A stretch of DNA of 32,000 bases. Origin: Telmatocola sphagniphila. GTDB lineage: Bacteria > Planctomycetota > Planctomycetia > Gemmatales > Gemmataceae. A model generated the notes under the pieces. That model was given only the letters and a program-made list of their open reading frames with translations. It was not told the origin of the DNA and did no database searches. Each line of letters begins with the position of its first letter. Positions within the stretch are counted from its first letter, which is position 1. A program made the position numbers and the translations under genes. The DNA lies in the NCBI RefSeq assembly GCF_018398935.1, contig NZ_CP074694.1, positions 360,001 to 392,000 on the forward strand, read 5' to 3'. This document shows, piece by piece, positions 4,635 to 32,000 of this stretch.

Positions 4635-4669
4635 GTCGAGTCCTTCAGGTGTTGCCAATCCAGGGGCTG

Positions 4670-7110: not shown

Positions 7111-7200
7111 AGACGCTTTCCAGATAATTCCGATTTTTGAGTTGGGGGCCTACCCATATCCCGATTAGACTATGGCCCGTTATACCGGAGGCGATCTTTG

Positions 7201-8649: not shown

Positions 8650-8663
8650 GAATTCATTGTCGA

Positions 8664-13016: not shown

Positions 13017-13207
13017 TTCTTTTGCTCGCAACAGAATATCCTTGCGTATTCAGTATCGCAAAGACAGAGTAGACAATTGATAACTATAGTACAGTAAAGC
13101 AGTCAAACTTTACATTGCATGCAGATGAAAAATTTAGGAATGTTTCCGTTTTGAACGCTTGCATGCGATAACCGCAGTCCGAATCCTTCGATCACCGAGG
13201 TAGAAAC

Positions 13208-16186: not shown

Positions 16187-16210
16187 CTATCAGCTATCAG
16201 CTATCAGCTA
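16185..16210. repeat. Heptanucleotide tandem repeat (AGCTATC) x ~3.7
   Basis: Read directly: agctatc agctatc agctatc agcta, starting inside the TAG stop codon of the 13208..16186 gene. Confidence 0.85.
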
Positions 16211-16295
16211 ATGAAATGGTTGGCATTTGTCACAACGATCATTGAAAATTACTTGGCTGAGCGTTGAATCTGAAAGCTGCGACTACATTATCTTA

Positions 16296-16314
16296 GCTGA
16301 CCGCTGACCGCTGA
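16296..16314. repeat. Heptanucleotide tandem repeat (GCTGACC) x ~2.7
   Basis: Read directly: gctgacc gctgacc gctga, located 14 nt upstream of ATG 16328. Confidence 0.8.
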
Positions 16315-16327
16315 AAAGGTTTCTCTA

Positions 16328-17956
16328 ATGAGTTCGGTACCTCTCAAAAATATTCTGAAGCTCGTAGATCCCAAACAAACCACGGAGATTCGAAGATCGG
16401 CGATTGTCGTGCTGGGAGAATTGGGCCAACGGGAAGGAGATACTTCCGAGGCCATCCATGAATGCCTACGAGATACGGATCAGGGGATTCGCCTCGCCAG
16501 CATCGTCGCGATTGGCCAGCTTAAGATCGATGCCGCGTTGCCTGAATTGCTCGAAAAAATCAAGCATGGCGGACTCGAGAGCGAACTGGCGGCGGACGCC
16601 GTGGCCAAACTCGGTGTCAAGGGGCGGAAGGCCTTGCAGGACTTGATGGGGAAGGTGGCACCGGGTCTGAGGAAGTATATTGCTTCTTCTCTGGCCGCAA
16701 GTGGGGCGGATCGAGCTGATGCGGATGCGTTGAAAATCCTTCAGGATAAAGACCCGGCCGTAGTGGAAGCGGCTCTGGGTTCGATGATGGGAAGTATTCC
16801 TAACCTGGGAGCTTCACAAAGGAAAGCTCTGGCCGATCAACTGATCGAATTGGTTTCCAACAAAAAGCAGCCGATCGCGACGAGTATGGAAGCGGCGGCA
16901 TTGAAATTGTTGGCGGTTTTCGACGATCCGCGAATCGGCAAAATCTTGTGGGAGCGCGTACAGCCTGGGCGTAACCCCGACATTCGCATGGCGGCCTTGC
17001 AATCGATCGGCAAATTCACCACTTCACCGAACAAAGAACAGTTGGCGATATTGTTTGGCTGTGCCTGCGAACCTGATTTTCGCATGGCGGCCCCGGCCTT
17101 GATGATGCTGAAAAATGTCAAAGTCACTGACAAATCGCTGAACGATTGGCTGGTACTGTTCAAGGCGGTCGATTCGGCCACCCGGCAATTTGCGATGGAT
17201 AAGCTCGAGGGATTCGATACGCCTGAGTTGGCCGGGGCTTTGCTTCCGTTAATTCGCAGTTCGGATCGCAAGTTCGCGGAAGCGGCGACCCGGAAACTAA
17301 CCGAGCTGGAAAGCGGGCGAAAGCTTCTTTCCGAAGCTCTGCTGGAAGCGGAAACGCCCGATCAATACTGGCAATATGCCCGCATGCTGGTGCCGATTGC
17401 CAAACAGTACCCGGCCAGATGGCGGGATACGGTTTTCAAGAAGCTCACTAAGTATATCGAGGAGAATGATCGCCGGGCCGATTCGCTTGTATTTCTGATG
17501 GGCGAGACCGATGCGGGCGATCTGCGCGAGCGACTGGAAACTTTTGCCGTCGAACTGCGCAAGAAAAAAGCCTACGAGCGAGCTTATCCTTTCCTGAGAA
17601 CGCTAGCCCGCGATCCCGCTTGCGGCATGTCGGCCCGCTTTGAACTGGCGACGGTTGGTTTGAAGCTTTCCGCGAAAGATTTCAGTGAAGATAGTCGCGC
17701 CAAAGATACCTGTCTCCACAGCTTTTCCACACTTTTGCAGCATCAGCAGAATGACGAGGAAATTTTCCAGCAACTCGAAAAAGTGAAATGGCTGGAACCG
17801 GAAGATCTGTACTATCTGGGCTTCCATTTTGCGGATCACGAAGCCCGGCACAAAAAGTTCGCCAGCCTGGTGCTGAAACTGGTCGTCAAGCGATCGCCCA
17901 AATCGAAGCTGGGGCAGAACGCCAAAGCCAAACTGAAAACTTCCGGCTTACAATGA
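16328..17956 (+). CDS. HEAT-repeat domain protein
   Basis: 542 aa, all-helical and Ala/Leu-rich. Recurrent HEAT/PBS-lyase-like units (RRSAIVVLGELG, IRLASIVAIGQL, IRMAALQSIGKF). Same strand as the heme-binding protein and downstream of it. Confidence 0.7.
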   Translation: MSSVPLKNILKLVDPKQTTEIRRSAIVVLGELGQREGDTSEAIHECLRDTDQGIRLASIVAIGQLKIDAALPELLEKIKHGGLESELAADAVAKLGVKGRKALQDLMGKVAPGLRKYIASSLAASGADRADADALKILQDKDPAVVEAALGSMMGSIPNLGASQRKALADQLIELVSNKKQPIATSMEAAALKLLAVFDDPRIGKILWERVQPGRNPDIRMAALQSIGKFTTSPNKEQLAILFGCACEPDFRMAAPALMMLKNVKVTDKSLNDWLVLFKAVDSATRQFAMDKLEGFDTPELAGALLPLIRSSDRKFAEAATRKLTELESGRKLLSEALLEAETPDQYWQYARMLVPIAKQYPARWRDTVFKKLTKYIEENDRRADSLVFLMGETDAGDLRERLETFAVELRKKKAYERAYPFLRTLARDPACGMSARFELATVGLKLSAKDFSEDSRAKDTCLHSFSTLLQHQQNDEEIFQQLEKVKWLEPEDLYYLGFHFADHEARHKKFASLVLKLVVKRSPKSKLGQNAKAKLKTSGLQ

Positions 17957-18038
17957 CGCCTGGTAGCCAAACTCGGTTAAAATGAATTGGGATTAGCAAT
18001 CCCGTTGACTCGCGAACGAAATCCCATGAACTATTAGC

Positions 18039-18932
18039 ATGGCTTCTGATAAATATCTCCGGCCCGAAGTGATTCGGCAGGTCAGCCGTCTCGACCTGCG
18101 TGCCAAGTTCATTGTTGAAGGCTTCCTCAGCGGGTTGCACGGCAGTCCGTTCCAGGGCTTTTCGGTCGAATTCAGCGAGCATCGCAAGTACGTCCCCGGC
18201 GATGACATCAAGGATCTCGACTGGACCGTCTATGCGAAAACCGACAAGTACTATCTGAAGAAATTCCAGGCTGAGACGAACATGACCGGCTACCTGGTCA
18301 TGGATCTTTCGGCCTCCATGGCTTTTACCTATCGGCAGGAGTTGACCAAGTTCGATTATGCGATCTGTCTGGCGGCCGCGCTGGGTTATCTGATGATTTA
18401 CCAGCAGGACCCGGTCGGGCTGGTGACATTCGACAAGAAAATACAGACCATTCTGCCGCCCAAAAGCAAGCGCACTCAGTTGGGCACGATTCTTTCCGTG
18501 TTGTCGAATCTGAAACCCAGTGGTGAGACCGATATTGCGGGTTCACTGCATCAACTCGCCAGTCTGATCAAAACCAAGAGCCTGATCATGATCTTCAGCG
18601 ATCTGCTGACCGATCAGGACGCGGTGATGAAGAGTCTCTATCGTTTCCGGCACTCCGGCCATGAAATCATTCTCTTTCATATCCTGGATGAGGCGGAGGT
18701 GCATTTCCCTTTCGAAGGATTGACCGAGTTCGAAGACGTGGAATCCTCAGAGAAACTGGTGATCGACGCCCGGGGAATGAAATCGGACTATCAGGCCGCG
18801 ATCAAGGAATTCCAGGCGGGCTACAAGGAAGAGTGCAATAAGGCGAATATCGACTATGTGCCGATAGATACGAGCATCAGTTTCGACAAAGCGCTGTTGG
18901 AATATCTTATTCAGCGAACGAGAAGGTTCTAG
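18039..18932 (+). CDS. DUF58 domain protein (vWA-like, MoxR-associated family)
   Basis: Characteristic N-terminal block LRAKFIVEGFLSGLHGSPFQGFSVEFSEHRKYVPGDDIKDLDW, followed by a vWA-like fold region (YLVMDLSASM). Confidence 0.8.
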   Translation: MASDKYLRPEVIRQVSRLDLRAKFIVEGFLSGLHGSPFQGFSVEFSEHRKYVPGDDIKDLDWTVYAKTDKYYLKKFQAETNMTGYLVMDLSASMAFTYRQELTKFDYAICLAAALGYLMIYQQDPVGLVTFDKKIQTILPPKSKRTQLGTILSVLSNLKPSGETDIAGSLHQLASLIKTKSLIMIFSDLLTDQDAVMKSLYRFRHSGHEIILFHILDEAEVHFPFEGLTEFEDVESSEKLVIDARGMKSDYQAAIKEFQAGYKEECNKANIDYVPIDTSISFDKALLEYLIQRTRRF

Positions 18933-19074
18933 AACTCCTCGATTCCTGGGTTATGATAATTTCCTTCGTAGCATTGCGGACCTTCCCACTTTCTCCGTGA
19001 CTTCCCGAACCTGTCGAACTAGAAATAAACTAACCTACCGAATCGCCCGAATCGCACGACGAGGTGAGTGATCC

Positions 19075-20241
<1,167 letters not shown>

Positions 20242-20252
20242 AAGTGAGACTC

Positions 20253-20284
20253 GAAGCTTGCCAGAAATCTATCTGGCGAGCTTC
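20253..20284. terminator. Stem-loop between convergent genes (possible bidirectional terminator)
   Basis: gaagcttgccaga (20253-20265) pairs with tctggcgagcttc (20272-20284), giving a 13-bp stem with one G-U position and a 6-nt loop. No clean U-tract follows on either strand. Confidence 0.4.
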
Positions 20285-20297
20285 CTTCGCCGTTTGA

Positions 20298-20624
20298 CTA
20301 TTCCTTCTGTTTTTCCAGTTCCACCATTTCGATGATTTCTTCCACAGGGATCCAGACCAGCATCTTGGGGAAGGTTTCCTTGGTCACGTTGTAACCCACA
20401 ACTTCCCGTCCTACTAAAAATACCCGACCCGCAATTATCTTCATGTCAATTTGATTCAAGGTGGTCATAACGTTCTTAGAATGAACGTACACGACTTTGT
20501 CGATGAACGGATTGGCAGGCTGCGCTGCCTGCGGAGGAGCCTGTCCCCCGGCAGGTAGGATCAGAAAGCCGCCGGCGGCCACCAGGGCCAGGACCGAAAA
20601 CACTACGATATTACGTTTGCTCAT
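20298..20624 (-). CDS. Small signal-anchored hypothetical protein
   Basis: 108 aa with GAGGTG 6 nt upstream of the ATG. Hydrophobic N-terminus (IVVFSVLALVAAGGFLILPAGG), then a Pro/Ala/Gln linker and a small domain. Confidence 0.55.
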   Translation of the reverse strand: MSKRNIVVFSVLALVAAGGFLILPAGGQAPPQAAQPANPFIDKVVYVHSKNVMTTLNQIDMKIIAGRVFLVGREVVGYNVTKETFPKMLVWIPVEEIIEMVELEKQKE

Positions 20625-20737
20625 GACTACACCTCGCTTGGGTCTATTAGCGGATAATACCCAGGGAGGCTTTGTTCTGTCAATCGTGAGATGATTGGTT
20701 AAACTAGTCTCATACTTCGAGCCCCGGAGACTTGTTG

Positions 20738-21883
20738 ATGTCGTCGCTGCTTTACTTCCTGGTTTTCATTCAGTCTCAGCCCGAAGAGCCCGGCGTCCAG
20801 AAAGCTGAAGCTCTAGTCCGGCAACTGGCCGATCCTTCGTTTCTGAAGCGGGAAGCGGCCTCGCGCGAACTGATTGCGCTGGGGAGTTTGGCAAAACAGG
20901 CGGTGCAAAAAGGGGGGCTGAGTCGGGATGCCGAGGTGCGTGATCGCTGCCGTATCATTTTCCCGCAGATACTGAGTCTGGATATCAAGCAGAGATTGAA
21001 TCGCCTGGAAAAACTTGAGGGAAATGTTGCTCAGATCGATTTGCCGGGTTGGAAGAGACTGACGCGATTGGGAGGTTTGGACGACAAGGCCCGAGCCAAG
21101 TATTTGGCGGTTCTCCGTCAGCATATCCCGGAAATCATCTTGCTCGAAAGCGATCCCCGGGCATTCGTCAACCACTACGAATCTCGCCTGATGTCCCTGC
21201 ACGATTTTAATGGAGAAGCCATCCGGGGATTCCGCGAAGCGGCCTATCAGGTCGAATTGAATTTTGCCACCGATGAGTTGATGTTCTGGCTGATCACCCT
21301 CTCGGACGAACGGGCGCTGAAGCAAACGGAGCGGCAGGACGATAAGCGGTATGGTCATCTGAAACTGCTTCTGAAGCAATTAACCTTCATGCGGCACTGG
21401 ATCGACAAGGATCGCAACACTCTGACCGAAGCTCTGCTGGTCGCCACACTGGAAGAATTCGTCTCGGACTCCGCCGATTCTGGAATTCTGTTTTTCGGCT
21501 TCGATTTGCTACAAAAGCGGCCACTCTCGCGCATGGCCGATCTCTCCGCCAGCATTTTGAAGCGACACATCAAGAATAGCGACCTGAACTTAAAAGCCCT
21601 GAGTACTCTGGGTCGATTCGGACACCCCGATCACCTTCAGGTTCTCGAAAAATTCCTGCTGGATAGTTCCACGCTCGCAAGCGGCTACTATCCCGGTTAC
21701 ATCACGCAGTATCGCGACTTCGCACTGGCCATGGCCTTGCGCATTCAGAAACAGCGCCCCCAGCATTTTGGCTTCGCTCTGGATGTCAATTCGCCAGAGC
21801 CTAAAGCGATGTCTTACGGCTTTAAGGAGGAAGCGCAGCGGCAGAAAGCCTTCGAAATGTATGGCGACTTTCTTCGAAAATGA
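20738..21883 (+). CDS. Hypothetical protein (helical-repeat-like)
   Basis: ATG 20738 is preceded by GGAGA 8 nt upstream (the track start 20732 is TTG). Host-like codon usage. I recognised no motif. Confidence 0.5.
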   Translation: MSSLLYFLVFIQSQPEEPGVQKAEALVRQLADPSFLKREAASRELIALGSLAKQAVQKGGLSRDAEVRDRCRIIFPQILSLDIKQRLNRLEKLEGNVAQIDLPGWKRLTRLGGLDDKARAKYLAVLRQHIPEIILLESDPRAFVNHYESRLMSLHDFNGEAIRGFREAAYQVELNFATDELMFWLITLSDERALKQTERQDDKRYGHLKLLLKQLTFMRHWIDKDRNTLTEALLVATLEEFVSDSADSGILFFGFDLLQKRPLSRMADLSASILKRHIKNSDLNLKALSTLGRFGHPDHLQVLEKFLLDSSTLASGYYPGYITQYRDFALAMALRIQKQRPQHFGFALDVNSPEPKAMSYGFKEEAQRQKAFEMYGDFLRK

Positions 21884-21886
21884 CAA

Positions 21887-22312
21887 TCAGGATTTCCGCG
21901 ACACGACTACCAGTCCGGCTAAGATTAACGCCGTGCCGATGGCTACCCGCAAAGTGATTTTTTCGCCCAGGAGCAACCAGGCCAGCAGCACGGCCACGAC
22001 GAAGCTTCCCTTGTCGATTAAGGCAATCGTTGAAACCTCTCCCAGTTGTAGCGCTTTGTAATAAAAGATCCAGGAAATGACCGTGGTGGCCGCAGAAAGG
22101 CCGAGCCACAGGTAATTTCCTTTGGTGAGTTGATCGAATTCTGATCGGGAAACCGTGAGTGCTGCAAAACCGAGAACGAAAACGCAGACGAACGCCGTGC
22201 GGACCGAAAGCCCGAGTTCGCTGCCGATACCCGAGAGGCCTTGTTTGGCGATTACCGAAGTAAAACCGGCGAAAATCATGGAGATGATCGCATAAAGAAT
22301 CCATCGTTCCAT
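21887..22312 (-). CDS. Half-size EamA-domain (DMT superfamily) transporter
   Basis: I start at ATG 22312 (MERWILYAIISMIFAGFTSVIAKQGL), which is preceded by AGGAAG. ~141 aa with 4-5 hydrophobic helices and a C-terminal ALILAGLVVV typical of a single EamA domain. Divergent from the encapsulin operon. Confidence 0.7.
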   Translation of the reverse strand: MERWILYAIISMIFAGFTSVIAKQGLSGIGSELGLSVRTAFVCVFVLGFAALTVSRSEFDQLTKGNYLWLGLSAATTVISWIFYYKALQLGEVSTIALIDKGSFVVAVLLAWLLLGEKITLRVAIGTALILAGLVVVSRKS

Positions 22313-22549
22313 CGCTGCTTCCTTTATCCCTGGCCAGGTCACGGACGAACTGCTTCTGATTATAGCCAACAAAATTGGTCCACTTGGTAAGGTTGACAAA
22401 GTGGGTAGAGCGGGAGATTCTCTTTGGCCGACAGGCTATCGAGCTTTTATCCTACTACTAATAAATTTCAACGATTGATTGTACATCCCAGACGCAGGAA
22501 TTAGGACATGTCGGACAATCTGTTACAGCGGAGTGTCACCACTGCAGTA

Positions 22550-23921
22550 GCCCGTAACCTGGCGAACACGACGAAGACATCGCCGAAGATGACGTCGATC
22601 ACGCCGCGTTGGCTGTTGAGTTTATTGCCGTGGGTTCAGGTGGACGGGGGCACGTACCGTGTGAATCGTACGAAGGTGGAGTTATCGAAGGCGGCGCGTA
22701 TAGGAGTGGATGTGTCTGGGGGAGTGGCGTCGTTTGCTCCGGAGTCGTTGCGGGGTGTTCCGTTGTTTTCGGGTTTGCCGGACGGTGTGGTGAGTCGTAT
22801 GGCGAGTCGATTCAAGACGGAAGAGGTATCGTTGGGTAACAAGTTGATAGTGGAGGGTGAGGACCGGAGCAAGTTTTTCATAATAGCGCAGGGTCAGGTG
22901 GAGGTATTGAGCAAGGGTATTCACGGGAGTGACTTGCGAATCGCGTTATTGTCGGATGGGGAGTATTTTGGGGAGAGCGATTTGGTGTTGGACAATCGTC
23001 CGTCGGATGTGACGGTACGTACGACGACGCCGTGTGTGTTGGTGACGTTATCGCGTAAGGATTTGGATGGGGTGTTGGAGGAGTCGGGGAATTTGCGGGA
23101 GGATTTTAATCGTGCGATCAAGGAGCATATGGATTTGCGTTCGACGGTGAATCGTTATGGGGAGCGGAACATAGATTTGGTGAGTGGATTTGCGGAGAAC
23201 GTGGAGATACCTGAGACGTTTGTGGATTATTCATCGAGTCCGCGGGAGTATTCGTTATCGTCGGTTCAGACGGTGGTGCGTGTTCATACGCGGGTGTCGG
23301 ATTTGTACAACGGTCCGTTCAATCAGTTAGAAGAGCAGATGCGTTTGACGATCGAGGGTATTAAGGAGCGTCAGGAGTGGGAGTTGATCAACAACAAGAA
23401 GTTTGGATTGATCAATTCGGTGGATCCGGCGATGCGTATCAGTACGCGATATGGGGCACCGACGCCGGACGATTTGGATGAGTTGTTGGCGTTGGTGTGG
23501 AAGAAGCCGGCTTTTTTTCTGGCTCATCCGAAGGCGATAGCGGCGTTTGAGCGGGAGTGTACGTGGCGGGGTGTTCCCCGGTGACGATGAATTTGTTTGG
23601 GACTCCGGTGATCAGTTGGCGGGGTGTGCCGTTGGTTCCGTGCGACAAGTTGGAGATGAAGAGTCGTTATCAGTCGAATCAGTGGTTTGGTACGACGAGT
23701 ATATTGTTGGTGCGGGTGGGTGAGGCGGACCAGGGTGTGGTGGGTCTTCATCAGGCGGGGATACCCGGGGAGATCATGCCGAGTCTGTCGGCTCGATTGA
23801 TGGGTTTGGACAGTTTGGGAGTGGCATCGTATCTGTTGACGCTGTACTTTTCGTGTGCGGTGCTGACCGACGATGCGTTGGGCGTTCTCGAAAACGTCGA
23901 AGTCGGATACTACCACGATTA
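22550..23921 (+). repeat. Direct repeat copy A (1372 nt) of tandem shell-gene duplication, period 1506 bp
   Basis: I compared it by eye against 24056..25428. Only two differences were found: C22593 versus T24099, and the C4/C5 indel. Confidence 0.9.
22751..23101 (+). other. Cyclic-nucleotide-binding (CAP effector-type) domain inside shell copy A
   Basis: Same sequence as in copy B: [19 protein letters not shown] ... [22 protein letters not shown]. Confidence 0.7.
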
Positions 23922-24013
23922 CGAACATCGCAAAAATGGATTCGAACACGGGCTGGGAATCTAATTTCCCCTTATTCTTCTCAAAGCGAACACAACTCTA
24001 GAGGTGCATGCAT

Positions 24014-25456
24014 ATGTCTGATGGTCTTCTGCAACGGAGTGTCACTACTTCCGTGGCCCGTAACCTGGCGAACACGACGAAGACATCGCCGAAGATGATG
24101 TCGATCACGCCGCGTTGGCTGTTGAGTTTATTGCCGTGGGTTCAGGTGGACGGGGGCACGTACCGTGTGAATCGTACGAAGGTGGAGTTATCGAAGGCGG
24201 CGCGTATAGGAGTGGATGTGTCTGGGGGAGTGGCGTCGTTTGCTCCGGAGTCGTTGCGGGGTGTTCCGTTGTTTTCGGGTTTGCCGGACGGTGTGGTGAG
24301 TCGTATGGCGAGTCGATTCAAGACGGAAGAGGTATCGTTGGGTAACAAGTTGATAGTGGAGGGTGAGGACCGGAGCAAGTTTTTCATAATAGCGCAGGGT
24401 CAGGTGGAGGTATTGAGCAAGGGTATTCACGGGAGTGACTTGCGAATCGCGTTATTGTCGGATGGGGAGTATTTTGGGGAGAGCGATTTGGTGTTGGACA
24501 ATCGTCCGTCGGATGTGACGGTACGTACGACGACGCCGTGTGTGTTGGTGACGTTATCGCGTAAGGATTTGGATGGGGTGTTGGAGGAGTCGGGGAATTT
24601 GCGGGAGGATTTTAATCGTGCGATCAAGGAGCATATGGATTTGCGTTCGACGGTGAATCGTTATGGGGAGCGGAACATAGATTTGGTGAGTGGATTTGCG
24701 GAGAACGTGGAGATACCTGAGACGTTTGTGGATTATTCATCGAGTCCGCGGGAGTATTCGTTATCGTCGGTTCAGACGGTGGTGCGTGTTCATACGCGGG
24801 TGTCGGATTTGTACAACGGTCCGTTCAATCAGTTAGAAGAGCAGATGCGTTTGACGATCGAGGGTATTAAGGAGCGTCAGGAGTGGGAGTTGATCAACAA
24901 CAAGAAGTTTGGATTGATCAATTCGGTGGATCCGGCGATGCGTATCAGTACGCGATATGGGGCACCGACGCCGGACGATTTGGATGAGTTGTTGGCGTTG
25001 GTGTGGAAGAAGCCGGCTTTTTTTCTGGCTCATCCGAAGGCGATAGCGGCGTTTGAGCGGGAGTGTACGTGGCGGGGTGTTCCCCCGGTGACGATGAATT
25101 TGTTTGGGACTCCGGTGATCAGTTGGCGGGGTGTGCCGTTGGTTCCGTGCGACAAGTTGGAGATGAAGAGTCGTTATCAGTCGAATCAGTGGTTTGGTAC
25201 GACGAGTATATTGTTGGTGCGGGTGGGTGAGGCGGACCAGGGTGTGGTGGGTCTTCATCAGGCGGGGATACCCGGGGAGATCATGCCGAGTCTGTCGGCT
25301 CGATTGATGGGTTTGGACAGTTTGGGAGTGGCATCGTATCTGTTGACGCTGTACTTTTCGTGTGCGGTGCTGACCGACGATGCGTTGGGCGTTCTCGAAA
25401 ACGTCGAAGTCGGATACTACCACGATTATCAGCACCGGATGTCTACTCCAAAATAA
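24014..25456 (+). CDS. Family 2B encapsulin nanocompartment shell protein (HK97-fold with cNMP-binding domain), intact copy
   Basis: 480 aa. ATG 24014 aligns with the copy A start and has AGAGG 10 nt upstream (an alternative ATG lies at 24008). The N-terminal block [40 protein letters not shown] matches, from memory, the conserved N-arm of family 2 encapsulins such as SrpI. A cNMP-binding domain follows, then ~280 further residues with no helix-turn-helix. The downstream gene is an N-terminally extended cysteine desulfurase. The HK97 fold itself cannot be verified by eye. Confidence 0.7.
   Translation: MSDGLLQRSVTTSVARNLANTTKTSPKMMSITPRWLLSLLPWVQVDGGTYRVNRTKVELSKAARIGVDVSGGVASFAPESLRGVPLFSGLPDGVVSRMASRFKTEEVSLGNKLIVEGEDRSKFFIIAQGQVEVLSKGIHGSDLRIALLSDGEYFGESDLVLDNRPSDVTVRTTTPCVLVTLSRKDLDGVLEESGNLREDFNRAIKEHMDLRSTVNRYGERNIDLVSGFAENVEIPETFVDYSSSPREYSLSSVQTVVRVHTRVSDLYNGPFNQLEEQMRLTIEGIKERQEWELINNKKFGLINSVDPAMRISTRYGAPTPDDLDELLALVWKKPAFFLAHPKAIAAFERECTWRGVPPVTMNLFGTPVISWRGVPLVPCDKLEMKSRYQSNQWFGTTSILLVRVGEADQGVVGLHQAGIPGEIMPSLSARLMGLDSLGVASYLLTLYFSCAVLTDDALGVLENVEVGYYHDYQHRMSTPK
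24056..25428 (+). repeat. Direct repeat copy B (1373 nt) of tandem shell-gene duplication
   Basis: See copy A. The flanks are diverged: the first 42 nt of the two genes differ at 12 positions, and the 3-prime tails encode different C-termini (EHRKNGFEHGLGI versus QHRMSTPK). Confidence 0.9.
24257..24607 (+). other. Cyclic-nucleotide-binding (CAP effector-type) domain inside shell copy B
   Basis: [51 protein letters not shown] ... [40 protein letters not shown]. The FGE and downstream Arg of the phosphate-binding cassette are present. Confidence 0.75.
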
Positions 25457-25480
25457 TTCACCCCAACTGAGAGCGGCACC

Positions 25481-27130
25481 ATGAACGAAATCACTCCGGA
25501 TTTGATTGCTTCGATTGCCAGCCGGCTTTACAACGAGTTGCCGGGGGCGAATACTGTCCCCAAAACCGAGTCGGATCTGCAGGGAATCGCTTCTCAGGGA
25601 GCGTTACCCACATCTCCTGTGGGCGATTTGAAAGCGCCCCCGACCATGCCCGCATCGATCCTGCCAGCCATGCAGATGCCGCAATCTCCGAACCTGCCGA
25701 GTCTTCTTGAGGCGTTCCGTCCGATGCCGGAAAGCTATGCAATGCCGGTTCCGGAAGTGCAGCATGCCCCCAAAAATCCCGAAGGTTTGAAGGCCTTCGT
25801 TCAACGCGTTCAAATGACCGGAGTGCGCAAAGATTCGGGCCAGTGCAATTCCGACCTGGGAGATGGAATTGTTGCCAAGCTCTTCGATCCCCGAGTCCTC
25901 AATACCGGTTCGAGCCGGCCGTTGGATGTGGTGGCCATTCGCAAGGATTTCCCGGTCTTGCATCAGAAGATCCACGGCAAACCGCTGGCCTGGCTGGATA
26001 ACGCCGCGACGACTCAGAAACCCCAGAGCGTCATCGATGCCATCTCCCGTTTTTATGCCAACGACAACTCGAACATTCACCGGGGAGCCCATACCCTCGC
26101 CGCCCGGGCTACCGACGCTTACGAACAGGCCCGCCAGAAGGTGCAGACTTTCCTGGGAGCTTCCAGCGCAAAAGAAATCGTTTTCGTTCGGGGCACGACT
26201 GAGGGAGTGAACTTAATCGCTCAAACCTACGGCAAGAAATTTTTGCAGCCGGGCGATGAAATCGTTTTATCCACGCTCGAGCACCACGCGAACATCGTTC
26301 CCTGGCAGATGATCGCCAAGGAAAAAGGGGCGATCATTCGAGTCATTCCGGTCAACGACCGCGGCGAAATCATGCTCGAGCAGTATCAAGCGATTCTCGG
26401 GCCGAAAACCAAATTGGTGGCTCTCACTCACGCTTCCAATAGCCTCGGAACGATCCTGCCGGTGTCGGAAATGACGCAACTGGCCAAGCGCTATAACGCT
26501 CGGGTGCTGATCGATGGAGCCCAATCGGTTTCGCACATGCCGGTCGATATGCAGCAACTGAACTGCGATTTCTTCGTATTCTCCGGCCACAAGATTTTTG
26601 GTCCAACAGGTATCGGTGCGGTGTACATCAAGGAAGAATTGCACGAGATGCTGCCGCCCTGGCAAGGGGGCGGCAATATGATTCGCAACGTGACGTTCGA
26701 AGAAACCACCTACAGCGATGCCCCGGCCAAATTCGAAGCGGGTACGCCGAATATCGCGGACGCGGTCGGACTGGGGGCGGCTCTCGATTACGTCAATCGC
26801 ATCGGCCTGGTCAACATCGGCCAGTACGAACACAAACTTCTGGAATACGCGACCGAAAAATTGTCGCACATTCCCGGCCTGCGATTACTGGGCACCGCCA
26901 AGGACAAAGTGAGTGTGATCTCTTTCGTGTTGAAGGATCGCAAGACGGAAGAGGTAGGCCGAATGCTCGATCAGGAAGGAATTGCCGTGCGGGCGGGGCA
27001 CCACTGTGCCCAGCCTTCGCTGCGCCGATTTGGTGTGGAAAGCACCGTACGGCCTTCGTTCTCTCTTTATAATACGATGGAAGAGGTCGATCGATTGGTC
27101 GATGCGGTGCGGCGAATTCAACGAGTTTAA
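25481..27130 (+). CDS. SufS/CsdA-type cysteine desulfurase (class V aminotransferase) with ~147-aa disordered N-terminal extension
   Basis: Core motifs: RKDFPVLHQKIHGKPLAWLDNAATTQKP, NIHRGAHTLA, SGHKIFGPTGIGAVY (PLP lysine), RAGHHCAQP (catalytic Cys loop). Residues 1-147 are Pro/Ala/Met/Ser-rich with no counterpart in canonical SufS, which starts near the xxVRxDFPVL block. Confidence 0.9.
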   Translation: MNEITPDLIASIASRLYNELPGANTVPKTESDLQGIASQGALPTSPVGDLKAPPTMPASILPAMQMPQSPNLPSLLEAFRPMPESYAMPVPEVQHAPKNPEGLKAFVQRVQMTGVRKDSGQCNSDLGDGIVAKLFDPRVLNTGSSRPLDVVAIRKDFPVLHQKIHGKPLAWLDNAATTQKPQSVIDAISRFYANDNSNIHRGAHTLAARATDAYEQARQKVQTFLGASSAKEIVFVRGTTEGVNLIAQTYGKKFLQPGDEIVLSTLEHHANIVPWQMIAKEKGAIIRVIPVNDRGEIMLEQYQAILGPKTKLVALTHASNSLGTILPVSEMTQLAKRYNARVLIDGAQSVSHMPVDMQQLNCDFFVFSGHKIFGPTGIGAVYIKEELHEMLPPWQGGGNMIRNVTFEETTYSDAPAKFEAGTPNIADAVGLGAALDYVNRIGLVNIGQYEHKLLEYATEKLSHIPGLRLLGTAKDKVSVISFVLKDRKTEEVGRMLDQEGIAVRAGHHCAQPSLRRFGVESTVRPSFSLYNTMEEVDRLVDAVRRIQRV

Positions 27131-27154
27131 CTCAAGCTGAATGGAGTCCCAGTT

Positions 27155-27700
27155 ATGTCTCTGATGGTGCTACCGCCCTCCGAAGTTCTGCAAAAATTGA
27201 AATCGAAATCCGGCAAGCTCATCGATGTGCGAACTCCCGCCGAGTACGAATCGCTTCATGCCGAAGGGGCGGTGTTGATGCCGCTCGACAAGCTGGATCC
27301 GCTAGCTCTGAAAACCAACTATCCCGATAACGATTTCTACGTGATTTGCCGTTCGGGAGGACGGGGCAAACAGGCTTGCGAAAAGTTGCAGGCCGCCGGG
27401 ATTGATCGGGTCATCAACGTTGAAGGCGGAACCCTGGCCTGGGAAAAAGAGGGATTGCCCGTTATTCGCGGTCGCCAGACCATGTCCCTCGAACGTCAGG
27501 TTCGCATTGCCGCGGGAAGTCTGGTCGTGATGGGATTAAGCCTGGGTTACTTCATTCATCAGGCGTTTTTTGGCATCTCGGCTTTCGTCGGTTGCGGGCT
27601 CGTGTTCGCGGGACTTACCGATACCTGCGGAATGGGTATGATTCTCGCCAAAATGCCCTGGAATAATCGAAAGCCCGTAGCCAGTTGTCAGGTAAGTTGA
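27155..27700 (+). CDS. Rhodanese-domain sulfurtransferase fused to DUF2892 (YgaP-like) membrane segment
   Basis: Rhodanese active-site loop VICRSGGRGKQA. The C-terminal hydrophobic region AAGSLVVMGLSLGYF ... GCGLVFAGLTDTCGMG is typical of DUF2892. GGAG lies 9 nt upstream of the ATG, and the gene starts 24 nt after the desulfurase stop. Confidence 0.85.
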   Translation: MSLMVLPPSEVLQKLKSKSGKLIDVRTPAEYESLHAEGAVLMPLDKLDPLALKTNYPDNDFYVICRSGGRGKQACEKLQAAGIDRVINVEGGTLAWEKEGLPVIRGRQTMSLERQVRIAAGSLVVMGLSLGYFIHQAFFGISAFVGCGLVFAGLTDTCGMGMILAKMPWNNRKPVASCQVS

Positions 27701-27720
27701 ATCTGCGACAGAACTTCAAG

Positions 27721-27766
27721 AAATGAAAAAACCCCGCTGAGTTTGGTGTTCCACTCTCAGACGGGG
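27721..27766 (-). terminator. Rho-independent-type terminator read on the minus strand (hairpin + U-tract), possibly also acting for the plus-strand operon
   Basis: ccccgctgag (27732-27741) pairs with ctcagacgggg (27756-27766) with one bulge. On the minus strand the hairpin is followed by ttttttcattt (complement of 27721-27731). It lies downstream of the minus-strand aminotransferase stop (27936) and 21 nt after the rhodanese stop. Confidence 0.5.
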
Positions 27767-27935
27767 CCGGAACAGAGAAGAGGCTGTTTGTAAAAGTAAC
27801 TAAGCGTTGTAAATATGTCAATCTCAGCTTGTAAATATTTCCAAGATAACCACTTACTGCTTTTCTAAATACATTCCATTTCGCCTAAATTACCATTTCG
27901 TGTAGATATTATACGCTACATTATGGGTTCCCGAT

Positions 27936-29111
27936 TTATTTGCTGGCAGCGGGCATCTTCTGTCGGAGCTTAACGAGCTTCTCACCGGCTTTGTGCAGCG
28001 TCTCATCCTTCTTGGCGAACATAAAGCGAACTTTAGTACGGCCCAACTCCTTCGGCTCGTAGAAACTGCTGCCCGGTACGCCGGCGACCCCGACTTTTTC
28101 GATCATCGTGCGGACGAATTCGACGTCGTTGTTCCAGCCCATTTTGGAGAAATCGCACATGACATAATAGGCCCCGTCGGGGGCATGAAATTCGAAACCG
28201 GCTTCCTGAAGGTAAGGCAGAAAGATCTGTCGGCGATGGAGATAATCGGACTTCAATTTGGCGTAGTAGGCTTCACCGAAGCCGATGGCCGCGGTGCCGG
28301 CGACCTGTAATGGATGCGGGGCGCCCACCGTCAGAAAATCGTGAGCCTTTCGGATGCCGGAAGTGATCTCGGGCGGTGCCACACAATATCCCAGTCTCCA
28401 ACCGGTGACACTGAAAGTTTTCGACAAACCGCTGATCGTCACTGTGCGATTGGCCATGCCAGGCAGCGAAGCAATGCTGATGTGCGGACGGTCGGTGTAC
28501 TGAATGTATTCGTAGATCTCATCGGAGAGGGCAAAGGCGTTATGTTCCTGGCAGAGTTGAGCAATGAATTCCAGTTCCTCGCGATTGAAAACCTTCCCAG
28601 TTGGGTTATTGGGCGTGTTAATGATGATTGCTTTGGTTTTGGAATTGAAGGCTTTACGCAACTCGTCCCGGTCGAAGCTCCAATCCGGGGCCCGCAAGGT
28701 GACAAAGACTCGCTTGGCTCCCGTTAAGAGGGCATCCGGGCCGTAGTTCTCGTAGAAGGGCTGGAAGATAATCACTTCATCGCCGGGATTGATGAGCGCC
28801 AGCATGGTGGCCATCATGCATTCGGTGGCTCCGCAGCACACCGTGATATGGGCATCGGCATCGCACCACTCGAGCTTGTTGAAAGTGCGCATCTTCCCGG
28901 CGATGGCCTGCCGCAAGCTGGCGATTCCCCAGGTCACGGCGTACTGGTTGTAGCCATCCCGGATCGCTTTGCAGGCGGCCTCTTTCAGATCGGGGTGCGG
29001 ATCGAAATCGGGCATTCCCTGTCCCAGATTCAATGCCTGAAATTGATTCGCCAGCCGGGTCGTTTCTCGAATCACCGATTCTGTGAAATAGCTGACGCGA
29101 TCGGAAAGCAT
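27936..29111 (-). CDS. PLP-dependent aminotransferase class I/II (YbdL / kynurenine aminotransferase / glutamine transaminase K-like)
   Basis: LNLGQGMPDF, YNQYAVTWGIASLRQAIAGK, INTPNNPTGKVF and SGLSKTFSVTGWRLGY (PLP lysine) motifs. I use ATG 29111, with AAGGAG 9 nt upstream (the track start 29120 is TTG). It starts 16 nt after the cysW stop. Confidence 0.85.
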   Translation of the reverse strand: MLSDRVSYFTESVIRETTRLANQFQALNLGQGMPDFDPHPDLKEAACKAIRDGYNQYAVTWGIASLRQAIAGKMRTFNKLEWCDADAHITVCCGATECMMATMLALINPGDEVIIFQPFYENYGPDALLTGAKRVFVTLRAPDWSFDRDELRKAFNSKTKAIIINTPNNPTGKVFNREELEFIAQLCQEHNAFALSDEIYEYIQYTDRPHISIASLPGMANRTVTISGLSKTFSVTGWRLGYCVAPPEITSGIRKAHDFLTVGAPHPLQVAGTAAIGFGEAYYAKLKSDYLHRRQIFLPYLQEAGFEFHAPDGAYYVMCDFSKMGWNNDVEFVRTMIEKVGVAGVPGSSFYEPKELGRTKVRFMFAKKDETLHKAGEKLVKLRQKMPAASK

Positions 29112-29127
29112 AAACTTCAACTCCTTG

Positions 29128-30024
29128 CTAAGCCTTGAGCGCGAGATTACTGTTACGGGATTTCTCCTGCCGTAATTTTCGTTCCACGCCGACTTTAATC
29201 AACAGGGTGACCAGAGAAAGCATGGTCAGAACGCTGGCCACGGCGAAGGCCGCCGGAGTGTTATATTCCTGGAAGAGCTTTTCTATGCGTAAAGGCATGG
29301 TATCCGTCTGCGAAGCGATTCGCCCCGATACGACATAGACCGCCCCAAATTCTCCCATCGCTCGTGCGTTGCAGAGAATTACTCCATAAAGCAAGCCCCA
29401 TTTGATATTCGGCAGAGTGATGCGAAAGAACATTTCCCAACCTGAAGCCCCAAGGCTACGGGCGGCGATTTCTTCCTCGCTTCCCACGGCCTCCAGGACC
29501 GGGATCAATTCCCGGGCGATGAAAGGAAAAGTCACAAACGCGGTGGTGAGAACTAAAGCGGGGGGAGCGAAAATAATCTGATAGCCATGCTCGCGGAGCC
29601 AGGCCCCCATCGGCGTCTGCAAACCGAACAGCAGCACAAAAACCAGCCCTGCCACTACGGGTGAGACCGAGAAGGGCAGGTCGATGAGTGTGGTGAGAAT
29701 CGTTCGGCCGGGGAAACGAAAGCGGGCGATGGTCCAGGCCGCGGCCACACCGAATATCAGGTTCATGGCCACGGCCACGGGAACCACCATCAGCGTCAGA
29801 AAAATGGCATGGCGGGTATCGGGATCGGCGGTGATATTTTTCCAGTAGACCAGCATACCCCGGCTAAAGGCTTGCACGAACACGCTGATCAACGGCACCA
29901 CCACCAGAATGCCGACGATGCCGAAGGTTAGTCCGATAAGGACAATTCGGACAAGCAGGGGATCACTCGATCGCCGCTTGGCATACGGCACAATATCGCG
30001 GACATCTTGAGCTTTAGCTTCCAT
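29128..30024 (-). CDS. cysW: Sulfate/thiosulfate ABC transporter permease CysW
   Basis: 298-aa polytopic permease with an ABC permease EAA-type loop (EEIAARSLGASGWEMFFRITLPNIKWGL). It is second in the sbp-cysT-cysW order and overlaps the cysT stop by 11 nt. Confidence 0.8.
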   Translation of the reverse strand: MEAKAQDVRDIVPYAKRRSSDPLLVRIVLIGLTFGIVGILVVVPLISVFVQAFSRGMLVYWKNITADPDTRHAIFLTLMVVPVAVAMNLIFGVAAAWTIARFRFPGRTILTTLIDLPFSVSPVVAGLVFVLLFGLQTPMGAWLREHGYQIIFAPPALVLTTAFVTFPFIARELIPVLEAVGSEEEIAARSLGASGWEMFFRITLPNIKWGLLYGVILCNARAMGEFGAVYVVSGRIASQTDTMPLRIEKLFQEYNTPAAFAVASVLTMLSLVTLLIKVGVERKLRQEKSRNSNLALKA

Positions 30025-30838
30025 GCCGTTTGCTCCAGCGTTCCAGAAGATTGATCGTGACCAGCAAAAGAAACGAGAAACTCAACAGCACGACGGCGAT
30101 GGCTGCCGCTTCCCGGTAGGAGAATTCTTCGAGCCGAGCCACGATGAGGGATGGGGCAATCTCCGTTTTGGAAGGGATGTTGCTGGAAATGAACACCACC
30201 GAGCCATATTCCCCAATAGACCGGGCGAAGGCGAGCGTGAAACCGGTCAGAGCAGGGGGGATCAGAGTTGGCAGGAGCACCCGCCGGAAGCTCTGCCAGC
30301 GGTCCGCGCCGAGAATGCCCGCCGCTTCTTCCACTTCGCTGTCGATTTCTTCGAGCACCGGTTGCACCGTTCGCACGACGAAAGGAAAGCCGGTGAATAT
30401 CAAAACCAGCACGATGCCGAATTGAGAATACGCTCCTTCAATTCCCAGTGGAACTAAAAACTGACCAAACCAGCCATCCTTCACATACAGGCTGGCGTAG
30501 ACCAGGCCCGCCACGGCGGTCGGCAGGGCGAAGGGCACATCCACCAGGGCATCGATCACGCGTTTTAATGGAAATTCATACCGCACGAGAGACCAGGCGA
30601 CAATCAGACCCAAGACCGTGTTGACCAGTGCGGCAATCAGAGACAGGCTGAAGGTCAGCTTGTAAGCAGCAATCGCTCGGGGAGTCCAGACCGCCGCGAT
30701 GAAATCTCGAACTCCCAATTCCGAAGCTTTGAGAAAGCAGGCCAGCAAAGGAATGAGGACTAACAGACTGAGATAGGAAACCGTGTAACCCAGGCCGAGC
30801 GAGTAGCCGGGCAGTATATTTCGATTGGCTGAACTCAA
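30014..30838 (-). CDS. cysT: Sulfate/thiosulfate ABC transporter permease CysT
   Basis: 274 aa. N-terminus NRNILPGYSLGLGYTVSYLSLLVLIPL resembles the E. coli CysT N-terminus (RRVLPGF...). EAA loop EEAAGILGADRWQSFRRVLLP. TTG start with GGAG 6 nt upstream. Confidence 0.8.
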   Translation of the reverse strand: MSSANRNILPGYSLGLGYTVSYLSLLVLIPLLACFLKASELGVRDFIAAVWTPRAIAAYKLTFSLSLIAALVNTVLGLIVAWSLVRYEFPLKRVIDALVDVPFALPTAVAGLVYASLYVKDGWFGQFLVPLGIEGAYSQFGIVLVLIFTGFPFVVRTVQPVLEEIDSEVEEAAGILGADRWQSFRRVLLPTLIPPALTGFTLAFARSIGEYGSVVFISSNIPSKTEIAPSLIVARLEEFSYREAAAIAVVLLSFSFLLLVTINLLERWSKRHGS

Positions 30839-30888
30839 ATTTTACTCCGCAAAAGCATCCAAGCCGAGGATCCTTCACACTGTCTTGA

Positions 30889-31908
30889 TCAGGGCCGGGC
30901 ATAGATTCCATCGAACACGCCGTTCTCGGCAAAGAACTTCTTCTGAATCGCATCCCAGTTTGGGGCGATCAGGGTGGAAGGAAAAAGGTCGATTGGCGGG
31001 AAGCGATCGGTATAGCGCTTCCAGATTTTCTCGTTGGTCGGCCGATAGAAGTGCTGGGCAATCACTTCCTGGGCCTCTTCCGTGTAGAGGAATTTCAAAT
31101 ATTCCTCGGCCACCACTTTGGTCTTTTTTCGAATCACGTTAGCATCCACAACGGCCACATGCGGTTCGGCCAGAATGCTGGTTTTCGGATAGATGATTTC
31201 CAGTTCGCCCTTCGCTTCCTGCGCTTCCAGATACGCTTCGTTTTCCCAGGTGAGATGGACATCGCCGATCTTTTTGGTCGCAAACGTCATCGTCGCTCCA
31301 CGCGCGGCGGCGTCCAGAACAGGTACATTTTTGTAGAGTCGGGTGACGAAATCGAGAGCATCGTTTTCCGTGCCCCCCTGTTTGAGAATCGCCCCCCAGG
31401 CAGCCAGAAAGCTCCATTTGCCATTCCCGGAAGTCTTGGGATTGGGAGTGATGACGCTGATGTCCGACTTCGTCAGGTCCGACCAGTCTTTGATGCCTTT
31501 GGGATTCCCTTTTCGCACCACAAAAACGATCGTCGAAACATAGGGAAGCGATCGATTCGGCAGCCGATCCTCCCAGCCCGGTTCGATCAGACCGGCCTTG
31601 CGAACGGCATCGGTATCCGACCACAAGGCGAGTGTAATCACGTCGGCATCGAGGCCGTCGATCACGGCACGGGCCTGGCTGCCCGAACCGCCGTGCGACT
31701 GGCGGATCGAGACTTTTTGCCCTTTTTCCTCGGCGAATTTACGGATAAACCGCTCGTTGATGTCTTTCCACAATTCCCGGGTGGGATCGCAGGCGACATT
31801 CAGCAGTTGAATTTCCGACGTGGTTCGAACCACCCCGGAAGCGAGGATCCACAGAGTGGACCCGAGGAGGTAGAGCGCCAGTAGGCCGAGGATAATTTTG
31901 CGTGTCAT
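30889..31908 (-). CDS. sbp: Sulfate ABC transporter periplasmic substrate-binding protein (Sbp/CysP family)
   Basis: Signal anchor, then LLNVACDPTRELWKDINERF ... SIRQSHGGSGSQARAVIDGLDADVITLALWSDTD, which closely matches the conserved Sbp/CysP blocks. Confidence 0.88.
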   Translation of the reverse strand: MTRKIILGLLALYLLGSTLWILASGVVRTTSEIQLLNVACDPTRELWKDINERFIRKFAEEKGQKVSIRQSHGGSGSQARAVIDGLDADVITLALWSDTDAVRKAGLIEPGWEDRLPNRSLPYVSTIVFVVRKGNPKGIKDWSDLTKSDISVITPNPKTSGNGKWSFLAAWGAILKQGGTENDALDFVTRLYKNVPVLDAAARGATMTFATKKIGDVHLTWENEAYLEAQEAKGELEIIYPKTSILAEPHVAVVDANVIRKKTKVVAEEYLKFLYTEEAQEVIAQHFYRPTNEKIWKRYTDRFPPIDLFPSTLIAPNWDAIQKKFFAENGVFDGIYARP

Positions 31909-31945
31909 GGGAATTCACTTTTCTTCGTATGTGTACAATCTACGA

Positions 31946-32000
31946 ATGGAATCGAAATACGACGAAGCCACGGCGTACCACGAGGCCGGTCATGCGGTCG
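31946..32000 (+). CDS. 5-prime fragment of an HEXXH metalloprotease-like gene (FtsH/M41-type motif), runs off the window
   Basis: ATG 31946 gives MESKYDEATAYHEAGHAV. AYHEAGHA is the zinc-binding motif context of M41 peptidases. Only 18 codons are visible. Confidence 0.3.
   Translation, partial: MESKYDEATAYHEAGHAV

Follow-up and report, generated by a model that had tools for sequence, protein, structure and literature searches.

Two adjacent shell genes of an encapsulin operon in the planctomycete Telmatocola sphagniphila are almost identical in their cores and clearly different at both ends. They lie within positions 360,001 to 392,000 of contig NZ_CP074694.1 (assembly GCF_018398935.1), a stretch of 32,000 nucleotides that is referred to as the window in the following. 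The pattern very probably reflects one episode of concerted evolution between two paralogues of long standing, in which gene conversion has recently replaced one core with the other. As judged from their domain architecture, both genes are Family 2B encapsulin genes in an operon of the known desulfurase type, and their products are predicted to assemble into a shell. Comparison with related loci shows that homogenisation of the pair generalises to a phylum-wide pattern. The planctomycete shell pair has the typical pattern of episodic concerted evolution, of which the window represents a recent, nearly full-length episode. Embedded in the shared core is a sharply bounded block that is compositionally foreign to the host and had not been emphasised in the preliminary description of this locus. 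Gene conversion as a process is well known; the strand-biased block is the strange and unexplained part of the locus.

Near-identical cores between diverged ends

Global alignment of the two shell genes reproduced the tract coordinates given in the preliminary description (Table 1), together with the single substitution and the one single-C indel by which the two copies had been said to differ. The substitution is C22593/T24099, with ACG (Thr) in the first copy and ATG (Met) in the second. The indel is an extra C in copy 2, which carries CCCCC at 25082-25086 compared to CCCC at 23576-23579 in copy 1. The copies are therefore offset by 1506 nt on the 5′ side of the indel and by 1507 nt on its 3′ side. 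As the indel shifts the frame, gene 1 as written is split into two open reading frames (ORFs), 22508-23584 and 23557-23964. The coding strand has lost a C in both of the changes that followed homogenisation (C5 to C4, and ACG to ATG with Thr as the family state). Only two events are involved, and the agreement may be fortuitous or the indel a product of sequencing error.

Outside the tract the genes part abruptly. The 5′ tips differ at 12 of 42 nt in nine codons, seven of which are silent changes and two replacements (N4G and A13S), exactly as had been counted before. Beyond 23921/25428 the codons differ again (TAC/TAT, GAA/CAG, CAT/CAC and CGC/CGG), followed by the unrelated tails KNGFEHGLGI and MSTPK. 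The ends of the two products read YEHRKNGFEHGLGI in gene 1 and YQHRMSTPK in gene 2, so that the earlier account of the 3′ ends also stands. The sudden switch in identity inside the ORF, previously put at about 71% to about 99.9%, was found in the global alignment as well (71% in the tip of 42 nt, 99.9% in the core of 1372 nt). Given 14 differences in approx. 1415 positions, the probability of a difference-free run of 1329 nt is 15 x (86/1415)^14 or about 1e-16. The identical tract is beyond chance.

A recent tandem duplication of one shell gene, the ends of which then diverged fast, would account for two adjacent and co-oriented genes with 99.9% identity over 1.37 kb. However, the tips are 29% divergent and the tails unrelated, compared to 0.07% divergence within the core; the intervening spacer belongs to no repeat unit, and the two tail types are conserved in their order across at least 53 genomes. 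Diverged tips, unrelated spacer and conserved tail types led us to exclude a fresh duplication, whose probability we regard as negligible.

Under gene conversion, about 1.37 kb of one gene would recently have been replaced with the sequence of the other by non-reciprocal homologous recombination between the direct repeats. Codon 15 would mark the start of the tract, and its end would lie at the final codon ahead of the tails, beyond which the genes are no longer homologous; only one substitution and one homopolymer indel would have been acquired since then. In general terms, recombination of the RecA type between direct repeats would replace one core with the other. The cores would thus evolve in concert and the tails would stay type-specific, presumably by selection and by the end of homology. 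Templated mutagenesis of the kind carried out by diversity-generating retroelements was also considered and was ruled out, as no reverse transcriptase was found among the Pfam-scanned ORFs of the window and the copies differ at two sites only.

Support for a genuine repeat

Short-read contigs of the same organism (Logan, run SRR14506984) were reached through the window desulfurase and an upstream protein encoded on them. They are 100% identical to positions 13075-22579 and 25399-32000 of the window. One of them extends exactly 30 nt past the last 5′ difference (22549), and in the other the first 3′ difference (25429) is preceded by exactly 30 nt. Stops at k-1 nt inside both borders are expected of a de Bruijn graph with k = 31 where a repeat is flanked by two different sequences on either side. 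No branches would arise at a locus present once, and branching at both borders therefore argues against the possibility, raised in the preliminary description, that only one copy exists and the other was introduced during assembly. At the level of assembled contigs, the repeat is supported as genuine rather than artefactual. An arrangement other than tandem seems unlikely given the conserved synteny in relatives.

Broader forms of artefact or a non-natural origin would include a chimera, repeat collapse, consensus homogenisation or an engineered recoded insert. Indeed, the single-C homopolymer difference resembles an unpolished long-read error in a repeat, and the exact shell protein, taken from either possible start, has no entry in the protein collection. 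Such scenarios are nevertheless very improbable. Apart from the flanks that match an independent assembly branching at both borders, the source is a chromosome-scale sequence of 6.59 Mb. The strand-biased block is in frame, meets the host-like tips seamlessly in both copies and encodes a protein 90% identical to natural homologues, with substitutions of its own and one insertion. Moreover, homogenisation is likewise present in an isolate genome and in long-read metagenome-assembled genomes (MAGs). As for an engineered insert, we know of no common optimisation scheme that fits a codon usage rich in ATA and TTG, and we count this against it.

The C4/C5 frameshift in gene 1 may have arisen in sequencing, or the gene may only just have been inactivated. 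An error is conceivable because short reads cannot polish long-read homopolymer errors in an identical repeat. If the frameshift is real, the locus would provide one functional shell protein only. A similar case was encountered in locus L080, a bin derived from Oxford Nanopore (ONT) reads. Here, the downstream shell gene (6559-7997) is broken by frameshifts into three tblastn pieces, which resembles the frameshift in gene 1 and exemplifies homopolymer-type errors in such assemblies.

Concerted evolution of the shell gene pair in planctomycetes

A scan of species-representative genomes returned 80 loci (numbered L001 onwards in the following), in 53 of which both shell genes are complete. All 53 planctomycete loci share the gene order of the window, namely Enc1 type, Enc2 type and desulfurase. 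The upstream Enc1-type gene codes for 484-487 aa and ends in ...GFxxG(L/S)GI, a tail type present in 67 genes. The downstream Enc2-type gene codes for 478-480 aa and ends in ...HR(K)xxPK or similar (xPK/xVK). Upstream and downstream, respectively, the two tails of the window fit these types. The shell protein is 85-90% identical across the Planctomycetota and falls into two length classes. Family-wide, the only fixed differences between Enc1 and Enc2 reside in the C-terminal tail, and no core position separates the types. The GLGI end of the Enc1 tail (after GF(E/D)x) is a motif that we take to resemble encapsulin cargo-loading peptides; we regard this as a lead and do not use it as evidence.

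The DNA identity of the pair within a genome ranges from 0.70 to 0.995 and is between 0.70 and 0.85 in most of the 53 genomes. Exact tracts with differing endpoints occur in several unrelated lineages. Homogenisation is nearly full-length in L010 (exact tract of 1343 nt), L045 (1399 nt) and the long-read MAG L026 (596 nt exact, about 99% identity overall). It is partial in four genomes, for which the limits are given in columns of the codon alignment. The tract of L054, the complete genome of the isolate Planctomicrobium sp. SH664, comprises 766 exactly identical nt (columns 177-435), and tracts of about 750 nt are found in L037 (columns 214-465) and L072 (columns 204-474). In L014, near-identity extends over positions of about 400 to 1400 (from column 121 or so onwards), with a longest exact run of 359 nt and limits at columns 187-441 by a strict criterion. 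The proteins nearest to those of the window are P0001 (Enc2 type) and P0002 (Enc1 type). Their genes (L081, 359-1798, and L082, 136-1590) are the two closest homologues, one per tail type, and come from different samples. They lie on contigs of 1.9 and 1.6 kb and are 100% identical over the first 1380 nt. Probably, they represent another fully homogenised pair that broke short-read assemblies.

At deep divergence, identity between orthologues (0.827) equals that between paralogues of different genomes (0.823). Between sister genomes, orthologues are far more similar than cross-pairs, and in many genomes the two copies of one locus are each other's closest relatives (for instance 0.94 in L064 compared to at most 0.88 to any other genome). 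Taken together, these relations point to concerted evolution. That the pair is ancient is shown by the two tail types, conserved in order across 53 loci, and by paralogues that are 0.70-0.85 identical in most of them. The preference of the preliminary description for gene conversion over fresh duplication is thus borne out by the widespread tandem pair with its usual 70-85% identity and by independent tracts with different endpoints. As to the comparison with related genomes that it had proposed, the paralogues are divergent in most of them, and none shows a simple duplication with identical termini. Little counts against the conversion part of our interpretation, although exact identity in short-read MAGs may be inflated by bubble popping.

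The suggestion that the distinct tips at both ends might be exposed at pores or towards the lumen has to be divided. It may hold for the C-terminal tail, which is the only conserved difference at the protein level. The N-terminal tip is not functionally distinct, seven of its nine codon differences being silent. It is as diverged as in ordinary unconverted paralogues, most simply because it lies outside the last conversion tract. In the window, the shell would effectively consist of one core sequence with two alternative C-terminal tails.

Two further observations were made in the family. A single shell gene match was obtained in 15 of the 80 loci (L019, L024, L025, L038, L039, L044, L050, L051, L059, L063, L066, L069, L070, L074 and L079), with an Enc1-type tail in some and an Enc2-type tail in others. 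In L019, L044 and L074 the gene is near the end of the contig or locus, and a second gene is possible. One paralogue seems to be dispensable, or to have been lost in different ways, in single-gene loci; long identical direct repeats would favour such deletions. Secondly, C- or A-ending codons are preferred in all homologues in the last 20 or so codons before the tails (columns 457-474, corresponding to the region 25382-25428 of the window). GTC, GAA, TAC (119/132) and CAC (127/132) are used there family-wide, even in genomes with other preferences.

A strand-biased block within the identical tract

In a likelihood scan, the block stood out with a log-likelihood ratio of 244 nats against the usage of 8195 host codons. 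Its third positions consist of G (.58), T (.26), A (.08) and C (.09), and its GC skew is +0.41. In 400-nt windows, the GC skew is +0.25 to +0.50 across the two shell genes compared to -0.11 to +0.21 elsewhere in the window. Nineteen other host genes served for comparison. The shell gene core has less C at third positions (0.11 vs 0.26-0.41), more G (0.56 vs 0.26-0.36) and a much higher share of TTG among Leu codons (71% vs 10-27%); the GC content at third positions (GC3) is 0.67 and similar in the other genes. A skew of this type was found in none of 136 homologous genes, which have a GC skew of -0.24 to +0.11 and a third-position C content of 0.23-0.65.

The loss of C depends on the class of site. 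Of 98 four-fold sites at which C is the family majority, only 4 have C in the window; the remaining 94 carry G (64), T (20) or A (10). At two-fold pyrimidine sites, in contrast, half of the C is kept (35/70 lost). A-ending codons for Lys, Glu and Gln are nearly gone (AAG 18/18, GAG 28/30, CAG 11/11), and ATA makes up 9 of 20 Ile codons compared to 1% in the family. Codon positions 1 and 2 are likewise poor in C (z = -5.8), mainly through CTG to TTG, and the amino acid changes A94G, S162L, L180V, P195G and T371S, which are specific to the window, also lose C.

The block is contained in the identical tract. Its skew is flat and ends abruptly about 59 nt before the 3′ end of the tract. Codons 453-471 of gene 2 comprise GTC, GAA, CTC, GGC and ACC, family-consensus codons that are absent or nearly absent in the block. 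We considered a nucleotide-level constraint as the reason for the unskewed last 59 nt and rejected it, since the synonymous-codon identity of the family is ordinary there (0.44-0.63). The block contains no canonical G-quadruplex (G4) motif, and a G4-based explanation was dismissed for this reason; runs of three or more G number 33 compared to a family mean of 15.

Candidate origins of the block

Tentatively, we attribute the block to import. A discrete segment of 1.3 kb would have entered one paralogue by homologous replacement and would then have been copied into the second one, its source being an unsampled relative in which the leading strand is extremely rich in G+T. A discrete block is favoured because the borders are sharp and the profile is flat. 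A comparable strand-wide skew exists in the phylum, as genes on the G-rich strand of L050 have a third-position G content (G3) of.58-.60 and a third-position C content (C3) of.21. The GC3 skew is about +0.5 in L050 and +0.73 in the block, and a donor like L050 could be the source of the block if its GC were lower and T were favoured over A in addition.

L050 merits description in its own right. At this locus (positions 1-11413; MAG STL-PLA47, JAXMBX010000032.1), all 400-nt windows of the plus strand with a single exception have a GC skew between -0.08 and -0.38 (for the most part -0.2 to -0.38), whichever way the genes are oriented. C3 is.60-.65 in plus-strand genes, and G3 is.58-.60 in the minus-strand genes for a FabH-like protein (8827-9951) and FloA (10601-11407). 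This replication-type strand asymmetry is unusually strong for a planctomycete.

Several results weigh against import. No donor was found, and the closest proteins, 90% identical, are encoded with normal codon usage. Two degenerate DNA patterns of marker codons had no match in the metagenomes of the JGI. Neither the DNA-pattern scan nor a protein-based scan of viral contigs revealed relatives, and blastn retrieved only distant family 2A and 2B genes from plasmids and nothing from phages. P0001 and P0002, the proteins closest to the block, are also the most similar in their tails, which fits vertical descent. The C/T ratio of the block is 0.11 at four-fold and 0.67 at two-fold sites, compared to 1.7 and 1.8 in the genes on the G-rich strand of L050. 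This six-fold gap between site classes makes the block unlike a simple equilibrium composition. Finally, the converted tracts of L054, L072 and L014 also lean to G-ending codons, which hints at a process linked to conversion. The host itself is without a close relative, the next cysteine desulfurase (CyD) being 70-78% identical, and in a segment-wise comparison of nearest neighbours (L054, L072, L014, L037 and the window) all neighbours were very distant.

Alternatively, the skew might have been made in place by a strand-specific process that is tied to repeated homogenisation and removes C (and A) from the coding strand while purifying selection keeps the protein. We consider this doubtful, and still less likely is the specific version in which homogenisation is coupled to a strand-asymmetric bias that ratchets C, and less so A, out of the converted region. 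Candidate processes are heteroduplex mismatch resolution favouring G>T>A>C on the coding strand, or its repeated exposure as a single strand in recombination or R-loops. The mild enrichment of G-ending codons in L054, L072 and L014 would then represent early stages and the block of the window the extreme end state. In support of this, the GC3 skew of the tract is +0.24 in L054 (-0.04 and -0.14 in the unconverted remainder), +0.23 in L072 (+0.06 and -0.03) and +0.16 in L014 (-0.06 and -0.11). When unconverted genes were partitioned in the same way, the difference was reached by none of 114 in the case of L054 and L072 and by one of 114 in the case of L014. G-ending codons are more frequent in the tract than in the remainder of the genes in each of the four partially converted genomes, and in three of these the excess is greater than in all or nearly all controls. 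One simulated round of choosing alleles in the order G>T>A>C on real unconverted pairs yielded G.45, T.21, A.10 and C.24, which is near the composition of those tracts. The unequal loss of C at four-fold and two-fold sites fits a non-equilibrium process dominated by C-to-G changes, and the window-specific amino acid changes as well as both differences that arose after homogenisation are losses of C on the coding strand. Across genomes, paralogue identity correlates weakly with the skew of the shell genes minus that of CyD (rho 0.30, p 0.048).

Other features are difficult to reconcile with an origin in place. The skew is flat up to its abrupt end about 59 nt before the tract end and does not fade toward the edges. 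ATA, TTA, TTG, GGT, CGT and AGT are not enriched in other converted tracts, and ATA cannot have come from a choice between existing alleles because it accounts for 1% in the family. A simple rate model of C loss fails for Ile. The pair L081/L082 is fully homogenised yet rich in C at third positions. Allele tests in sister genomes gave little guidance: the two-genome test is unpolarised, and the three-genome test, based on sites that are scattered, single and shared between sisters, is weakly G-biased (G>C 59, C>G 37), the sites being non-independent, confounded and mostly homoplasy. We also know of no repair bias with a G>T>A>C hierarchy and have counted this against the in-place explanation.

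Selection on synonymous sites of the shell mRNA is a quite improbable third origin. It might favour weak secondary structure or the avoidance of a nuclease or toxin site that contains C, or of codons read by thiolated tRNAs in sulfur starvation. Codons read by s2U34 tRNAs are linked to sulfur starvation, and the A-ending Lys, Glu and Gln codons avoided in the block are of this kind. The operon, moreover, belongs to a sulfur-metabolism system (Pfam; PMC10836720). However, the co-transcribed cargo and rhodanese genes have ordinary codon usage, and the skew is absent from all 136 homologues in operons of this type. Avoidance of C does not extend to every site where it would be possible, as the C-free Arg codons (AGR) are used in 0 of 31 cases and AGY codons for Ser are not raised. 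Unlike in translational optimisation, the rare codons ATA and TTA are enriched, and the identical tract is free of the effect in its last 19 codons. The ordinary usage in the cargo gene and in all homologues led us to reject tRNA thiolation in sulfur starvation in particular. Import from an unsampled donor remains our tentative preference, at less than even odds.

Organisation of the locus

The coordinates of the operon and of the segments discussed above are compiled in Table 1. The product of gene 2 matches the cNMP-binding domain PF00027 (residues 109-192, E 7e-14) and the SrpI-like HK97 shell domain PF19307 (residues 211-467, E 3.5e-115) in Pfam, and homologues of the shell proteins carry the name family 2B encapsulin nanocompartment shell protein. 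A cNMP-binding domain inside the shell protein separates Family 2B from Family 2A, and its combination with the SrpI-like HK97 fold defines Family 2B (PMC8346489). Assignment of the shell genes to this family in the preliminary description is well founded in this respect. By homology, gene 2 starts at 24014 rather than at the upstream ATG at 24008. The desulfurase comprises 549 aa with an N-terminal extension of about 170 residues that lacks a Pfam domain, an arrangement that recurs in related loci.

Table 1. Features of the shell gene operon in the window (positions in the 32,000-nt stretch).
Feature	Position	Strand	Remarks
Shell gene 1, Enc1 type	22508..23964	+	485 aa once one C is restored; frameshifted at the C-run 23576-23579 as written
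Diverged 5′ tip, gene 1	22508..22549	+	12/42 nt differ from gene 2 tip
Identical tract, copy 1	22550..23921	+	Global alignment: 1 substitution (22593) and one 1-nt indel vs copy 2
Strand-biased block, copy 1	22562..23862	+	Coordinates transferred from gene 2
C4 homopolymer, frameshift site	23576..23579	+	C5 at 25082-25086 in copy 2
C-terminal tail of gene 1, Enc1 type	23922..23964	+	Ends GLGI; paralogue-specific
Spacer between shell genes	23965..24013	+	Outside the homogenised sequence; small hairpin 23955-23970
Shell gene 2, Enc2 type	24014..25456	+	480 aa, intact; Pfam
Diverged 5′ tip, gene 2	24014..24055	+	Pairs with 22508-22549
Identical tract, copy 2	24056..25428	+	Global alignment
Strand-biased block, copy 2	24068..25369	+	Gene 2 codons 19-452; maximum-likelihood segment vs host codon usage
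C-terminal tail of gene 2, Enc2 type	25429..25456	+	Ends TPK; paralogue-specific
Cargo gene, cysteine desulfurase (class-V aminotransferase)	25481..27130	+	Pfam PF00266, residues 171-539; host-normal codon usage
Rhodanese with YgaP-like membrane domain, operon accessory gene	27155..27700	+	Pfam

Outside the operon, the window looks like common planctomycete chromosomal DNA. Among the Pfam-scanned ORFs of the window, no genes for reverse transcriptases, transposases, phage functions or mobile elements were found, and a scan for promoters and terminators gave no signal above shuffled controls. Antisense ORFs of up to 200 aa cross the shell genes, e.g. 24833-25435 (-) and 23524-23949 (-). They exist because the C-poor sense strand leaves few antisense stops and are not evidence of genes. 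Elsewhere in the window, two divergent giant genes, 8664-13031 (-) and 13208-16186 (+), encode proteins with DUF7133, HEAT repeats and cytochrome c, and ThuA in one of them. They are typical planctomycete proteins and not related to the shell gene finding. An ORF of 523 aa at 1495-3066 (+) has no Pfam match; positions 2401-2800 have a GC skew of +0.20 and an AT skew of +0.27, the latter being the strongest in the first half of the window.

Implications

The two-component shell of the planctomycete desulfurase system would be one concertedly evolving core that carries two alternative C-terminal tails. Such a core departs from the published picture of separate Enc1 and Enc2 lineages and points to the tails as what makes the two subunits functionally different. 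Identical cNMP-binding domains could hardly provide two regulatory inputs, and for these organisms the idea of two distinct domains that tune the shell would have to be given up. Furthermore, dozens of genomes, among them that of a cultivable isolate, form a clean natural series at this locus, in which conversion tracts range from absent to full-length.

As a compositional anomaly the block is unusually large, and what it signifies depends on its origin. If it was imported, it would be a case of allelic replacement inside a highly conserved structural gene from an unsampled donor lineage. If it was made in place, conversion or mutation would have to be biased in a strand-specific manner. To our knowledge, strand-specific biased gene conversion has not been described in bacteria.

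Comparison with known systems

Family 2B operons with two shell genes were known before, and recent duplication has been argued against by the authors who described them (PMC8346489). They share with the window two adjacent shell genes with cNMP-binding domains and an adjoining cargo gene, cysteine desulfurase being one of five cargo types described for Family 2B. The main text of the survey of two-shell-gene Family 2B operons does not contain the term 'Planctomycet'. In a study on Streptomyces lydicus from 2025, Enc1 proteins clustered apart from the Enc2 proteins of their own operons and were told apart by two diagnostic motifs in the A-domain, e.g. TVWK vs RRRK. Two-component (Enc1/Enc2) operons have been delimited by two Family 2B shell genes within 10 kb and in conserved order (PMC12407261). 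This description applies to the genes of the window (Table 1) and to the 53 loci. The A-domain motifs of the same work, however, do not distinguish the identical cores of the window, nor do they separate the types family-wide, as motif 1 is VWKK in both planctomycete gene types. Likewise, Enc1 is closer to Enc1 than to its own Enc2 only between sister genomes in planctomycetes. In the literature open to our search, we found no paper that links encapsulins with gene conversion in this sense.

Family 2A is represented by SrpI of Synechococcus elongatus and by the sulfur-storage compartment of Acinetobacter baumannii (PMC10836720). It shares with the window the PF19307 shell, the desulfurase cargo and a rhodanese. 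The long disordered N-terminal loading domain of its cargo has a counterpart in the 170 or so residues of the window cargo that lack a Pfam domain. In contrast, Family 2A has a single shell gene without a cNMP-binding insertion, and homogenisation of paralogues is therefore not possible there. At the DNA level, srpI is 68.6% identical to the window over 446 nt.

G-rich non-template strands are targets of recombination in the G4-dependent conversion of pilE in Neisseria and in immunoglobulin switch regions. As in these systems, a G-rich non-template strand coincides in the window with frequent non-reciprocal recombination. Unlike them, the window lacks a canonical G4, an array of silent cassettes, diversification, a deaminase and dedicated machinery. 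Replication-strand asymmetry, which makes leading strands rich in G+T, resembles the block in its excess of G over C and of T over A on one strand, which is most marked at third positions. In the window, however, the skew is limited to 1.3 kb that are present twice in a chromosome region with almost no skew.

A close parallel to the homogenisation itself is provided by duplicated bacterial genes that are kept alike by RecA-dependent conversion, such as tufA and tufB in Salmonella and the rRNA operons. These resemble the shell gene pair in that paralogues of one genome are more similar than orthologues of different species, and also in their mosaic tracts and their unaffected flanks. Unlike tufA and tufB, the partners in the window are tandem direct repeats that code for co-assembling subunits, their short terminal segment is kept distinct throughout the loci sampled from the phylum, and the converted block is compositionally alien.

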